Positions 40,329 through 53,368 of a stretch of 64,000 nucleotides of DNA are shown here, one piece after another. Each line of letters opens with the position of its first letter. The first letter of the stretch is position 1. The stretch lies in sequence record NC_019517.1. One strand, written 5' to 3'. The notes beneath the pieces are model-generated. The model was not told the DNA's origin. It searched no databases and was given only the letters and a program-made list of their open reading frames with translations. The stretch comes from Escherichia phage FV3. The position numbers and the translations under genes were made by a program.

Positions 40329-40508
40329 CACACAATTAGCTGCCCGGCTAAAGTGCTGGAAGCACCTATAACACATCTTTCAACTAAATTTCCTACCACC
40401 ACAATCACTTACCTCCCACACATGACTGTTTGCTTGTTTAGTGAGCAGTCATTCCTTGACATTCTTGCCTATCCTGATAAAATTAAGTTCTTCTCTTTTC
40501 TTTTACCG

Positions 40509-40535
40509 AGTAATTCGGGTTTTCTGTTCTCTTCG
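40509..40535 (+). terminator. possible terminator closing the plus-strand block
   Basis: hairpin CCGAGTAATTCGG followed by T-rich tract (approximate). Confidence 0.35.
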
Positions 40536-42559
40536 GTTTGAAGGGGTATGGAGATACACCTGAGTGAACAGGGTGAACAACCGAACCTTTAGCTATGGCA
40601 TTAGCATGGCGAAGCGGACGGGTGACGAAAGAGGGGCCGGAGGACACCAGTCACTGCCATATGGTATATGGGTGATAACCTGAAGAGTCTGAATAAGTGT
40701 TTAAGTACCAGTCAGAGGAAAAGGTGAATGGTAGCCGAAGGGGGAGGGGGGTTTCTTGTATCTTTAATTTGTATACTTTATATACACTTGTAAACCAATT
40801 CAATTAGAATATGGATACCACACAAAGTGGATAGAGGCAAATATTCCCTATTAAACTTGAATTATTTATAGAAAATACCACAACACTGCTTAAGTCTTTG
40901 ATTTTACACACAAATATTACAAATATCCTGCCTCTATATTTAACATACCTGTAACATATTCCATACTCTCCCTGATTGATCAATTCCCCAACTACATCCC
41001 CATATTTTCCCTTCCTGTACTACCCCTGCCCCGCCGGGAGTCCCGTCATATCTGGCTTTCCAGCAAATATCACACCCACAAATATCATTGCCTGAAGAGG
41101 GTTTCATCCCATAATACCTGCCTTACCCGAAGAGCGCTTCATACACCACGTAAATTTTTTAATTGACCTGCAATTTTCCTGCAGACCCACCCCCTGCCCA
41201 GCCGGAGAGGTTGGCTTTTCCCACACAGGCCTGAAGAGTCAGCCAGAAATATCTGAAGGGGGTCCAGTTCTACCACGATTTTGACCTGACCTACAGGAGC
41301 GCTGCCAGGCGGACGAAATGGGAATACTTCTCATTCTTATAACAATTCTCAAATATCGGGGCAGTGAGGCAAATTAATAGGCGAGGCCGTTCACACAGTG
41401 GCACAACATTTGCAAGCTATTTTGCGGGGGTGAATGAGAATACCTATCATTGTGAGAATAGTTATCATTACGGGCAATTTAACATAATACCCATTATGCG
41501 CACCACTGGCGATACATACAGGGATTGATAACATGGGTTACTGTTTACGCATATAACAATTGTATTTCTTATTATTTGTGGGGGATATAGTTAGCAACCA
41601 ATAGATTAGTTATTAACCTGCGGACTTCTGACCGTCTAGACGTCCAAACGCCCACACCACAAGGATTATACATACACTCCTGCATGTAAACAGGGCCGCA
41701 AAAATGCTACCATACCAGTTTGTAAATTTTCCATGCAGCACTTGACAAAGAGGAGAAAAACTTGTCTGACACACTGGACACCTTATACACCTTATACACT
41801 TTCGATACAATAACGATTGTTATTATTTCATGTTTCACTGTTCACGTATAGATTGTTCCTGCATAGACTGTTTACGCCTGGATAGTTTACACCTTGACAG
41901 TTTACGCAGATATGATAAGCCATGACATTCGTTTGCATAGTTGCCTTATTGTTACAGGTAAAACAATTACATTGTTAACTATTTCTTATCTTTCTCTTAG
42001 TCATCTAATGATTCCAGTCAGTATAGTTATGTACAGTAAACATTAGACGACTAAATATTTCTCTGATTATAGTAACCTATCGTGACAATTTCTAACTGTT
42101 TACGAAAAATGTTGACACCTGGGCAGGTTTATGTTATGCAGTTTGTACGAATAATTATTTTGTACAGGTATTGACTATTCCGTTATTCTGTGGTTGGAAT
42201 AAATACTTTGCAGGCTATAGAATGGTGATCGTACGTGGATTCTGAGATCTGTCGGCTATAGTTACACCCGATTTTTCACGTAGGACACGCTTTTTGGTTT
42301 GTGTAAGTGTATGACTTATAAGGGTTTTTAATTGTTGACAGTATACTGAAGATGTGCATCAGGTTAAATTTTGTGCAATAGCTGCATTACGTGCAATTTT
42401 GGGAGAGAAAACGGGTAAAAATAGCACCGCTACCACACAATGAAAGGTTATGCAATAGCTATTTTACATGTATATTTGTACAGTGTGCGGGATTGATGGC
42501 TCGTCAATTATTCCACTTGTCAGGTAGGGCCGTTTATGGTAGGAAAAGAGCAGACAAAA
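40536..42559. other. gene-free repeat-rich region between convergent blocks; candidate origin, regulatory or ncRNA locus
   Basis: no credible ORF over 2 kb; motif CTGTTTACG in at least 5 copies (41540-42100), CCTGAAGAG x3, GAGAAYRNTTATCATT x2. Confidence 0.5.
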
Positions 42560-42590
42560 AGAAAGGGGCCTAAGCCCCCTTGATAATGTT
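42560..42590 (-). terminator. rho-independent terminator closing the minus-strand block
   Basis: on minus strand AAGGGGGCTTAGGCCCCTT hairpin followed by TCTTTTTGTC. Confidence 0.6.
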
Positions 42591-42593
42591 GTA

Positions 42594-42920: not shown

Positions 42921-43193
42921 TTACTTGCGGCGGCAAAATTCAAGCGTTTTTAATTGATAATCTTCCTCAGCCTGGAGTACAACCGCCTCGATCATTTCGT
43001 TGGCATTGGTGAAGCCATACCCTTTAGCGAACTCATCCGCGCCACCTTCGTGATCATGTTCTGCGTTCATCGCTTCCACAAAATGGAATTCCAGGTTATT
43101 GAGATAAGGGCTTGATGTTCCGTCCTCTTTTTCGATGAGATCCCAAATAGCATTAAAACGTGATTCGACTTCTTGGTTAATCCAGCTTGACAC
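42921..43193 (-). CDS. hypothetical acidic protein (90 aa)
   Basis: track ORF. Confidence 0.45.
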   Translation of the reverse strand: MSSWINQEVESRFNAIWDLIEKEDGTSSPYLNNLEFHFVEAMNAEHDHEGGADEFAKGYGFTNANEMIEAVVLQAEEDYQLKTLEFCRRK

Positions 43194-43533
43194 GGCGTTT
43201 TCCTCTCTTCTGGTTGTTGTGTGGGCACTTTTGCCCCTTCAAGGTAAATGCTACCCCACCACCCGGCAGATGTCAACGGTTTTTATAGTTTTTTATATAA
43301 CGGGCACCCCTGGTGATTGTCTCCCCCCGTCGCCAGGTGCCGCCCGTGAAACAAGTATAACAAAAAACAGGACCATTGCAAGCCCTGTTTATTATCTTAA
43401 AACCAGGTGCCAACCGTTTCCAATAGATCACTGACTATCAGGACAATACTGATCAGCACATACCTAACCATAAAGGGAAAGATCGCCAACATTGCCGCCA
43501 CGATCCCCATGGTGATAATTATCTTTCTCATGA

Positions 43534-51405: not shown

Positions 51406-51603
51406 TTATTTTTTATTAAACCAGTGGTTGATCTGGCCTTTTGTCAGGGCGCAACGATTAAGCTGTTGCCGGGTATAGCTCTGACCGCGACGGAATTTAT
51501 AAAGGCCTTGCCCGTTGTTGATGGTCACATCCACCTGGCAAATCATTTGATCGGTGACCACCTGGCGAGTGCTGCGACGTACTTTAATTCCGTAGGCGTT
51601 CAT
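51406..51603 (-). CDS. hypothetical basic protein (65 aa)
   Basis: track ORF. Confidence 0.4.
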   Translation of the reverse strand: MNAYGIKVRRSTRQVVTDQMICQVDVTINNGQGLYKFRRGQSYTRQQLNRCALTKGQINHWFNKK

Positions 51604-51899
51604 GATTTTTTATCCTCTCTGTTAATTAGTGTGGTGTTGTTCACCTTGCGAGGATAAGAATAACAAAAACTGTCCGAGCTGTCAACCACTAGTTAAAATT
51701 ATTTTTTGGGTAGAATTCTCCAGCCGCCGCCCCTGCCAGGTTGACCATCATTTTTTCGTACTCTTCTTTATGTTCCAACGCTTCCGCCATAGCCTTTTCA
51801 ACCAGGGCGATAGCCTCAGCGTTATTAATAGCTACATTTTCCAGGGGGATCCTATTACCTTTCATTTTTGTACCTCCTCTTCAATTGTTACCTATCCTA

Positions 51900-52838
51900 T
51901 AACATAGGCCCACCAGGCTGGCCCCGCCAGGTTGCAGCGGTTAGCGCATCAGGTTAGAATTTTTTTTTTTTTGAAAAGTGTTGACAGCGGCCCCGCCAGG
52001 TGGCACAATATACATATCGAAAGGACGGCAGGCACCGGTGACGGGGGAGACAACCACCGGGGATGGGCGCTGCATGAAATGAGAACGATTATCATTATCG
52101 TCTAAAAATTTATGCAAAAACTTCTTGCTTTCTTTGTCCTGTGTGATACTATAATAACAAGCCGGGGCAGTAGGGGCCGGGAGACAATCACCGGGGGTGC
52201 CCGTTATTCTGCAAACGAGAATGATTATCATTCAAAATTCTAAATGAGAACTTTTCGCATTTCATAAATTTAGTTAGCATGCTAATTACCTACCGTGACA
52301 ATTCTATATAAAATAATACCTCATAAAATATTCCCATATAGAAATTTTAAAAATCCATTTCTGAAAACGAAAAATCGCTTTCGTTCCCAAAAATTTTAGA
52401 TCTGGTGCTGGACCAATTTCAAGAAAATCCGATTCAGAAAACGAAAAACAGATCGAGTACCGAAAAATTTATCGAGAAAAATTTTCAGAAAATCCAATCT
52501 TTGAAATGAAAAACAGATCGAGTACTGAGAGAGATGTATCAAAACTTACTGATAATAATTAACTTATTGTCATAAAAGGCCGAAAGTAAGTTGGGAAAGT
52601 TCTGGTAGAAGGGTGAGAGTGTGTGCGGAAAATCTGGAACGGTGATTTGAAGTACGGTGCGAACGATAGGATGATCAGCACAGCTTATCGTGCCTGTCTT
52701 GAAAAAATCCATTTTAGTTTTCGATCCATTTTCTGATTTTCTAAGAATTTTAAAATATCCGGCCAGGTAAAATATCAAAAGGAGGAAATCCATTTTAGAA
52801 ATCCTCCTTATGTTTGATGTGCCAGGGATTTTCAAGTA
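51900..52838. other. second gene-free repeat-rich region; candidate regulatory, origin or ncRNA locus
   Basis: 14-T run, plus-strand promoter-like TTGACA-N17-CACAAT at about 51981, duplicated 70-bp unit, AAATCC(A/G)(T/A)T repeats, 22-bp direct repeat GAAAAACAGATCGAGTAC. Confidence 0.5.
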
Positions 52839-53168
52839 TCAACTATCTTTGTTTTTAGGCTTGTACATGCGTAGAGGTATAGTTTTTATAACATTCCATC
52901 TCCCCAACCCTTCCCAGTTCCAGTTGTGGGCGTGATACCCAGTTATGCATGCACTGCTGGAGTGATCATAGGCATAGGAGAACGCTATGCGTAACAGATG
53001 AGGCCAGTCTTTCCACGGCTGTGGTCCGTAAGCCTTTCTCCAACACCGACACAAACTAAATGTCTCAAGAATAGGCAGGATAACAAATCCATACACCACC
53101 ACCAAGATGATCAGCGCAATGATTGTCAGGAATACATACCCTGCAGTTGAAATGATGATCTCTGTCAT
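52839..53168 (-). CDS. membrane protein (109 aa)
   Basis: N-terminal TM helix. Confidence 0.45.
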   Translation of the reverse strand: MTEIIISTAGYVFLTIIALIILVVVYGFVILPILETFSLCRCWRKAYGPQPWKDWPHLLRIAFSYAYDHSSSACITGYHAHNWNWEGLGRWNVIKTIPLRMYKPKNKDS

Positions 53169-53368
53169 TTGTCATCCCCTTTACGAATATAGATGTGTGA
53201 GCCTGCCTGTATATAAATTTCTCGACCATCTTCTGCAAAAATATGGAATACACGGTCACCTTCGTATTCAATACGGGATATCTTCATAACGGTCTTCCCA
53301 CCCGGAATGCGGATCTCATCGCCTACAGCAATGTTCCATGCAGATTTAAGCTTAAACATCAGCACCAT
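53165..53368 (-). CDS. hypothetical protein (67 aa)
   Basis: track ORF. Confidence 0.4.
   Translation of the reverse strand: MVLMFKLKSAWNIAVGDEIRIPGGKTVMKISRIEYEGDRVFHIFAEDGREIYIQAGSHIYIRKGDDK

Follow-up and report, generated by a model that had tools for sequence, protein, structure and literature searches.

A conserved non-coding locus with tandem plus-strand promoters and Fur-box-like palindromes in Escherichia phage FV3

What does almost one kilobase of DNA without a gene do in the middle of a block of small early phage genes? The question is raised by Escherichia phage FV3 (NC_019517.1), an rV5-like myovirus of the genus Vequintavirus, of which a stretch of 64,000 nucleotides (hereafter the window) was analysed. 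The locus in question, at 51866-52838 (0.97 kb), lies between the minus-strand genes 51689-51865 and 52839-53168 within a long minus-strand block of small early genes. An earlier note, made from the letters of the window, had described it as gene-free and had pointed to a plus-strand promoter, a duplicated promoter-plus-hairpin unit and several short repeats, with antisense or small RNAs or a second iteron cluster as possible explanations. We find that the locus is non-coding, that its modules keep a conserved order in related phages, that its promoters stand at a fixed position relative to an invariant core and that two palindromes behind these promoters closely match the consensus operator of the host repressor Fur. 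The reading we favour, tentatively and with a little less than even confidence, is a conserved non-coding control region in which Fur would gate plus-strand early transcription; Fur binding, the gating and a role for transcriptional read-through are what we infer from the sequence.

The first step towards an answer is the coding status of the locus. Nine Vequintaviruses were aligned, and each open reading frame (ORF) was checked for frame breaks and for the distribution of variable sites over codon positions 1, 2 and 3. The ORF at 51941-52231 has 11/15/12 variable sites and suffers a 1-nt deletion in relative L149, and the ORF at 52539-52835 has 47/35/50 variable sites and is broken by frameshifts or stops in 6/8 relatives, whereas the real neighbour gene 52839-53168 shows the third-position excess of a translated sequence (20/14/51). 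Neither ORF has a coding signature and 51866-52838 is non-coding, as the earlier note had judged when it found both ORFs unconvincing. Database annotation says otherwise: the rV5 reference record annotates ORF198 and ORF199 at the homologous DNA, and the first ORF is open in most close relatives and matches phrog_14993 at E = 2e-63. However, this ORF stays mostly open because the underlying DNA is almost invariant, the PHROG family is not independent evidence because it was built from the same annotated ORFs, and other genera are inconsistent, annotating the homologous DNA on either strand, as transfer RNA (tRNA) or not at all. That the two ORFs are real genes, as the rV5 record and PHROG 14993 have it, is therefore hardly credible.

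Nor did searches for known structural RNAs find a convincing match. No Rfam family was found at the gathering threshold in the whole window, the region itself gave only chance-level matches at E values up to 10, and five related loci were likewise without a match. A tRNA at the unit was considered, since one relative annotates tRNA-Met there, and was rejected, as ARAGORN finds no tRNA at this place or elsewhere in the window. The record of Klebsiella phage vB_Kpn_K45PH128C2 (OY978796; L015 878-1573) annotates tRNA-Lys, tRNA-Ile and tRNA-Met over the locus that ARAGORN does not find, and these features are probably an annotation artefact.

The second step is transcription, for which the locus carries two tandem plus-strand promoters. 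The TTGACA-N17-CACAAT pair reported previously is present at 51981-52009 (promoter PA), with 10/12 matches, a TG before the −10, an 88% G+C spacer (GCGGCCCCGCCAGGTGG) and near invariance in the nine Vequintaviruses. Ahead of it lies an UP-element-like A/T-rich stretch (51960-51977, plus strand), in which a T run, 13 nt long (51960-51972) and not 14 nt as first counted, is followed by GAAAA. PA fits the early-promoter consensus of Certrevirus, a genus of the same subfamily, AAAA-N3-TGTTGAC-N17-TATAAT (PMC7344957), and this fit accounts for the T run and the GAAAA ahead of the promoter. The second promoter, PB (52125-52155, plus strand), is read from the sequence either as TTGCTT-N16-TACTAT with a TG upstream or with an N19 spacer and TATAAT. 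Transcription starts near 52016 and 52161 were placed from the −10 positions, and each is followed by a G-rich leader of about 50 nt. The unit A leader (52016-52076, plus strand) holds the core GAGACAACCACC at 52047-52058, followed by GGGGA-TGGGCG, and the unit B leader (52161-52211, plus strand) holds GAGACAATCACC at 52181-52192, followed by GGGGG-TGCCCG-TTATTCTG, so that both share the invariant block GAGACAAWCACC-N5-TG(C/G)(C/G)(C/G)G. A G-quadruplex in these leaders was considered and dismissed, as the G-runs vary across phage types.

An orientation against the surrounding genes had been proposed for PA. A sigma70-like plus-strand promoter ends 28-33 nt upstream of the invariant core in 20/21 units (from 20 sources in six phage groups), while scoring of the best minus-strand promoters of the same 21 units found none at a constant position. 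Because the promoter-core distance is fixed on the plus strand, the orientation against the surrounding genes is real.

The unit behind the promoters is duplicated, as the earlier note had recognised. Two copies each of the motifs GGGAGACAAYCACCGGGG (52045, 52179) and GAGAAYGATTATCATT (52081, 52217) stand 134-136 bp apart, in place of the roughly 137 bp first given. The repetition is far beyond chance, with three copies of GGGAGACAAYCACCGGGG found against 0.05 expected in 64 kb. The third copy, on the minus strand at 43308-43325, had been missed. It belongs to a unit C (43294-43390, minus strand) made up of a terminator hairpin with a −35 (TTGCAA) in its loop, TATACT and a leader with GAGACAATCACC-AGGGG-TGCCCG. 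In the comparison of the locus with the 40.3-42.6 kb region, unit C at 43.3 kb alone is significantly similar (E = 3e-9), and the stretch is conserved at 80-87% in Phapecoctavirus. Its counterpart at a second locus of Certrevirus keeps the order of promoter, core and Fur box despite about 35 nt inserted between core and box. Unit C is co-oriented with its neighbour genes, and the Certrevirus copy is arranged alike, so the orientation against genes seen for units A and B is not intrinsic to the unit.

Two candidate leads on the unit came to nothing. A host origin was rejected, as the core-plus-tail pattern occurs in no Enterobacterales genome and gave only two hits, at chance level, in metagenome-assembled genomes of Acidobacteria. 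The gene just downstream of unit C (42921-43193, minus strand) matches DUF2218 weakly, at an E value of 0.008 that misses the cut-off. Because metallophore gene clusters are reported to contain this domain, an iron link through the gene was considered; the iron link through this gene was set aside, the DUF2218 assignment being unconfirmed by homologues or solved structures.

What follows the leaders is the third and central step. The motif TTATCATT, by which the earlier note had linked the locus to the 40.3-42.6 kb region, is not an anonymous iteron; it is the core of a 19-bp palindrome that resembles a Fur operator, near the consensus. Operator A (52081-52099), which reads GATAATGATAATCGTTCTC on the minus strand, agrees with the Escherichia coli Fur consensus GATAATGATAATCATTATC (PMC4506495) at 17/19 positions, and a consensus match of this grade arose in none of 100 shuffles. 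Operator B (52217-52235; minus strand TTGAATGATAATCATTCTC) agrees at 15/19. On a position weight matrix (PWM) built from 11 Gram-negative iron boxes (PMC10665472), which is a small matrix, box A scores 24.5 and box B 19.8, and the E. coli K-12 ryhB operator 21.6. No other position of the 64-kb window scores as high as either box. The two also rank first and second in the complete genome (135,753 bp) of the 97%-identical relative, for which chance predicts about 0.17 hits of at least 19. A third palindrome at 52243-52261 (AATGAGAACTTTTCGCATT, repeat D3) is degenerate and not Fur-like in FV3, with a score of −7.9, and is intact at this place in relatives.

The boxes are also kept in related phages. 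Fourteen relatives were scored, namely phages of Escherichia, Klebsiella, Salmonella, Cronobacter, Enterobacter, Pectobacterium and Serratia, and all 14 carry 2-6 boxes scoring at least 14 and a box homologous to box B. Every one of these boxes has AAT, and the TCATT next to it hardly varies; it is at these positions that the Fur motif is informative. In our view it is considerably more probable than the contrary that Fur is the ligand of the boxes.

The palindromes might instead be operators of a phage-encoded DNA-binding protein, their likeness to Fur sites being coincidental or competitive and the locus serving as an early/middle switch run by the phage itself. Such a protein would explain why the boxes deviate consistently from the Fur consensus, with TTGAAT and not GATAAT affecting positions 1-3 and C and not A at position 17, why arrays are regularly spaced at about 29 bp and why the second large non-coding region (40330-42593) has weaker Fur-like copies, at 41454 and 41809. 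Yet a 17/19 match to the host consensus is very unlikely by chance, conservation is strongest exactly where the Fur motif is most informative, the variant of phage 4MG (TGATAATGATTATCA) is nearer to the Fur consensus, and no candidate binding protein was found beside the locus. We consider this explanation quite unlikely.

The link that had been drawn through TTATCATT between the locus and the 40.3-42.6 kb region does exist, at 41436-41469 and in a few short motifs, but it is weak, and apart from unit C the shared motifs are at chance level. That region is itself a 2.3-kb non-coding stretch (40330-42593), where plus- and minus-strand gene blocks converge and the cumulative G+C skew peaks, and it has a plus-strand early-type promoter near 42110 (GAAAAATGTTGACA).

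The closest parallel to the boxes is the ryhB operator of E. coli, with which they share the 19-bp inverted repeat, a PWM score in the same range and much of the sequence (AAATGAGAATGATTATCATTC in the phage, GAATGAGAATGATTATTATTG in ryhB). Unlike the ryhB box, which lies between the −35 and the transcription start, the phage boxes are predicted sites, stand 56-83 nt downstream of a promoter and belong to a lytic phage genome. A ryhB-like minus-strand promoter across box B (TTGAAT-N18-CAGAAT) looked plausible in the window and was rejected, as it is not positionally conserved and is split by the insertion in second-locus copies. The antisense strand of the ryhB promoter (E. coli K-12, L164 215-245) reads GATCGCGAGACAATAATAATCATTCTCATTCGC, and its Fur box adjoins TCGCGAGACAA, 11 nt that recur in the PVP-SE1-type unit; Phapecoctavirus units share GCGAGACAA. 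Such an agreement would be expected by chance in roughly a few percent of cases and may be accidental. When viral contigs were scanned with GAGAAYGATTATCATT, most of the hits were unrelated, so that little could be learned from them.

The fourth step is conservation of the whole arrangement. In a phage database search, 51600-53200 matched 202 phage records, with 97% identity to Escherichia phage EPFV3-03/2025. Three blocks, 51975-52265, 52340-52530 and 52700-52765, are nearly invariant in the nine Vequintaviruses and more conserved than the flanking genes, the adjacent real gene accumulating third-position changes across the same phages. In distant relatives (Seunavirus, Mydovirus, Certrevirus, a Serratia-phage group, Phapecoctavirus and two metagenomic lineages), only about 52177-52271 aligns, that is, the 3' part of the unit B leader with box B, at 70-88% identity. 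The same architecture recurs in six related phage groups as a plus-strand block amid minus-strand genes. It often begins with a small plus-strand ORF, followed by a promoter and a GC-rich 'element 1'; then come a second promoter with the unit B homologue, one to about seven palindromes and often another promoter; and the block closes with at least three repeats that end in GATCGAG, followed by AAATATC motifs, before minus-strand genes resume. The window lacks element 1, and unit A behind PA stands in its position.

Element 1 is itself a strongly conserved, GC-rich stretch of about 95 nt (ACAGRAGAG..CGCCACCCCACGGCGWAAAGGCGGGGCTAAC..GGAAGGTGGATCGCCGGTAG), found at L139 1010-1130 and at homologous places in L015, L016 and L136-L147, just upstream of the unit B homologue and with its own plus-strand promoter. 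RNAalifold predicts 15 pairs, one of them covarying (G-C to A-U in 6 sequences), and there is no Rfam match; element 1 could be an undescribed phage RNA. Among the records similar to the locus, at 85-88% identity, are 16 'Campylobacter phage' records (MG0656xx) and single 'Acinetobacter' and 'Pseudomonas' phage records, the host labels of which look doubtful.

Taken together with the promoters, the boxes suggest a mechanism. Host RNA polymerase would initiate at PA and PB, against the surrounding genes, and each transcript would begin with a G-rich leader of about 50 nt and run into a Fur operator 56-83 nt after its start. Fur loaded with Fe2+ on the boxes would then gate plus-strand transcription. 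An iron-replete cell would yield short leader RNAs only, and under low iron or scarce Fur transcripts would read through across the AT-rich trough and three GATCGAG repeats to the terminator at 52779-52809. Read-through might activate or prime an origin, or might interfere or collide with read-through from the minus strand.

Several observations weigh against this proposal. The boxes, at about +56 to +83 of PA and PB, do not overlap the −35 and −10 of the plus-strand promoters, unlike in classical Fur repression. Seen from the PB start, box A covers roughly 60-80 bp upstream, with its centre at about 71 bp, and gating by roadblock or from about −70 would be unusual. The number of boxes ranges from 1 to about 7 between genera, in arrays with a spacing of about 29 bp, which suits titration or cooperative coating better than simple gating. 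Behind unit C the core is present in FV3 and the Fur box absent; the proposal gives no role to the invariant core, the hairpin of which is not better than chance; and a phage-encoded protein with Fur-like specificity is a possible alternative binder. Because of the non-classical box placement and the variable box number, which fits titration, our confidence in Fur gating stays restrained.

A wider proposal, possible and on balance doubtful, is that virulent rV5-like phages (Vequintavirinae and Phapecoctavirus) deliberately carry host Fur operators, 2 to about 7 per locus, either to make early non-coding transcription, and perhaps the firing of an origin, depend on host iron or to titrate Fur. 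In the titration variant, multiplying phage DNA would soak up Fur and thereby turn on the host iron-uptake regulon. The iron gained would supply ribonucleotide reductases, which depend on iron and are encoded by the phage nearby. Such soaking by boxes has an artificial parallel in the Fur titration assay used in the laboratory.

Does the leader RNA itself have a function? The earlier note proposed a hairpin in each unit and small or antisense RNAs. Extended to units A, B and C, this reading makes them genes of small RNAs, trans-acting or antisense, that would pair with target mRNAs through the conserved loop GAGACAAUCACC. Each copy does have its own conserved promoter, three copies occur per genome, and the 12-nt invariant core has variable G/C-rich arms that are able to enclose it in most types. 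The tandem layout also resembles that of PrrF1 and PrrF2 of Pseudomonas aeruginosa, tandem small RNA genes regulated by Fur as RyhB is, since the phage locus too has two tandem, short, promoter-driven non-coding units with a Fur box each.

Minimum-energy folding yields a hairpin for most versions of the unit, but the hairpin found no statistical support in a control in which the invariant core was fixed and the flanks of 25 distinct units were shuffled. The mean minimum energy is −14.1 kcal/mol, against −12.8 kcal/mol with shuffled flanks (individual z-scores −2.4 to +1.3), and 9.6 pairs enclose the core, compared with 7.7 in the shuffled versions. The fold shows no clear strand preference, the plus strand folding better than the minus strand in 15/25 units; helix registers differ among phage types and the helices contain hardly any clean compensatory change. 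The real units are thus hardly more stable than their shuffled versions and we claim no structure. Type-specific helices read by eye had looked like a convincing RNA hairpin with covariation, and since that signal vanished under the control no covariance model was built. Nor does an intrinsic terminator follow any unit; on the plus strand near units A and B there is none, the first strong hairpin lying at 52779-52809, so that neither unit is bounded as a small RNA would be. Unlike PrrF1, PrrF2 and RyhB, then, the phage units have no sequence or Rfam match, no intrinsic terminator, no overlap of box and promoter and no supported RNA structure. Opposite units A and B, moreover, the minus strand has no coding sequence. 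Small regulatory RNAs are, in our view, an improbable explanation of the locus.

As to the antisense suggestion, PA and PB do oppose the minus-strand block, but no minus-strand coding sequence lies ahead of the hairpin at 52779-52809, and plus-strand transcripts could be antisense only beyond it. That hairpin (AAGGAGGA...TCCTCCTT) is a bidirectional terminator, with z = −4.0 and −4.6 on the two strands. Relative L151 has a compensatory change in it, whereas a change in L001 preserves pairing, as G-U, on the minus strand only. It closes the upstream minus-strand operon and is likely the end of plus-strand transcripts.

Between the boxes and this terminator lies the part of the locus that bears on replication. 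An AT-rich trough (52250-52400; 23-25% G+C) with the palindrome TTAGCATGCTAA is followed by three plus-strand direct repeats of about 49 nt (52341-52528), spaced 74 and 65 bp apart, each with AAATCCRWT and the last two ending in GAAAAACAGATCGAGTAC. The direct repeat given in the earlier note as 22 bp is the end of this longer, thrice-present repeat; as GAAAAACAGATCGAGTAC(C/T)GA it measures 21 bp, at 52443-52463 and 52508-52528, and the GATCGAG ends comprise two exact copies and one degenerate one. The AAATCC(A/G)(T/A)T repeats reported with it are indeed clustered, with 5/6 plus-strand copies of the 64 kb lying within 52351-52786. A fast-evolving spacer (52530-52700), in which nine relatives show numerous substitutions as well as indels of lengths not divisible by three, gives way to a nearly invariant block (52700-52777) that contains AAATCCATT motifs, an inverted partial repeat copy (52735-52751) and two AAATATC repeats, which are also found in relatives.

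These features make the locus a candidate replication origin, at which the promoters would activate or prime replication, the G-rich RNA would favour an R-loop, the trough would unwind and the GATCGAG and AAATATC/AAATCC repeats would bind an initiator, with Fur at most accessory. At least three GATCGAG-ending repeats, 63-78 bp apart, occur in every Vequintavirinae genus sampled, the trough lies directly downstream of the promoters, the non-template strand of the leaders has a positive G+C skew and the non-coding blocks outconserve the flanking genes. The layout is also familiar: the primary origin of T7 consists of promoters 1.1A and 1.1B and an AT-rich stretch, oriF and oriG of T4 of a promoter and an unwinding element, and the lambda ori contains iterons. 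In FV3, likewise, an AT-rich trough and direct repeats come after tandem promoters.

Unlike those origins, the locus is a predicted one, has no DnaA boxes in the region and has no initiator gene identified alongside, the neighbouring proteins being without known domains. The repeats are long and just three, in units of 65-75 bp, whereas typical iterons measure 17-22 bp. Furthermore, Phapecoctavirus has the unit and the Fur boxes and lacks the GATCGAG repeats, and the cumulative G+C skew has no turning point here, its extremes lying near 2 kb and 40 kb. An origin as the main function is unlikely by this reckoning, and the earlier suggestion of a second iteron cluster retains some support from the GATCGAG repeats and the trough, although not from TTATCATT.

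The nearest non-coding locus described from this group of phages is a repeat locus of the related, rV5-like phage phiTE, where pseudo-ToxI, with 36-nt repeats, is transcribed during infection (PMC3475682). Homology between the two was rejected, as pseudo-ToxI has another genome position, close to the terminase gene and flanked by tRNA-Tyr and phiTE_203, and its repeats are unrelated in sequence.

How new would a Fur-gated locus be? Lytic cyanophages carry boxes for host regulators, PhoB boxes and NtcA sites, in the promoters of protein-coding auxiliary genes. FV3 resembles them in that a virulent phage keeps (here predicted) sites for a nutrient-sensing regulator of its host, so that transcription would follow host physiology, and differs in that its boxes lie in a non-coding region behind non-coding leaders. 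A literature search on Fur boxes in lytic phage genomes and on transcriptomes of these phages returned nothing relevant. Fur boxes and host-regulator boxes in lytic phages being already known, the FV3 locus combines the two and is not categorically new.

The consequences reach beyond FV3. What is annotated as hypothetical proteins in hundreds of phage records (rV5 ORF198 and ORF199, PHROG 14993) would be reannotated as a conserved regulatory locus, to which two conserved and so far undescribed non-coding elements, the unit core and element 1, can be added. For an unmapped origin or a control hub of these phages, no better candidate is available at present. If Fur binds, a metal-sensing repressor of the host would be wired into the early programme of widespread virulent phages of enterobacteria. 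Several phages of the group are used in biocontrol and therapy, and since both the gut and infected tissue are poor in available iron, an iron-dependent phage behaviour would bear on phage efficacy.

Some minor observations concern the early genes around the locus. Between 44600 and 51700 of the window, many minus-strand early promoters are trailed within about 10 nt by a short GC-rich hairpin, for example CATAGGGCGGCAATGATGCCGCC and CATAGGCGGGAAAACTTCCCGCC; these are probably stabilisers of the 5' ends of early mRNAs, and a GC-rich start is thus a general habit of early transcripts. The neighbouring gene 51689-51865 (58 amino acids) is frameshifted in L002, L008, L149 and L151, in or beside short runs of G or T, which reflects either sequencing errors or a dispensable gene. 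Ahead of this gene, at 51912, 6/8 Vequintavirus relatives have 48 extra nt that are absent from the window and from EPFV3, and the insertion carries a minus-strand TTGCAA-N17-TATAGG promoter.

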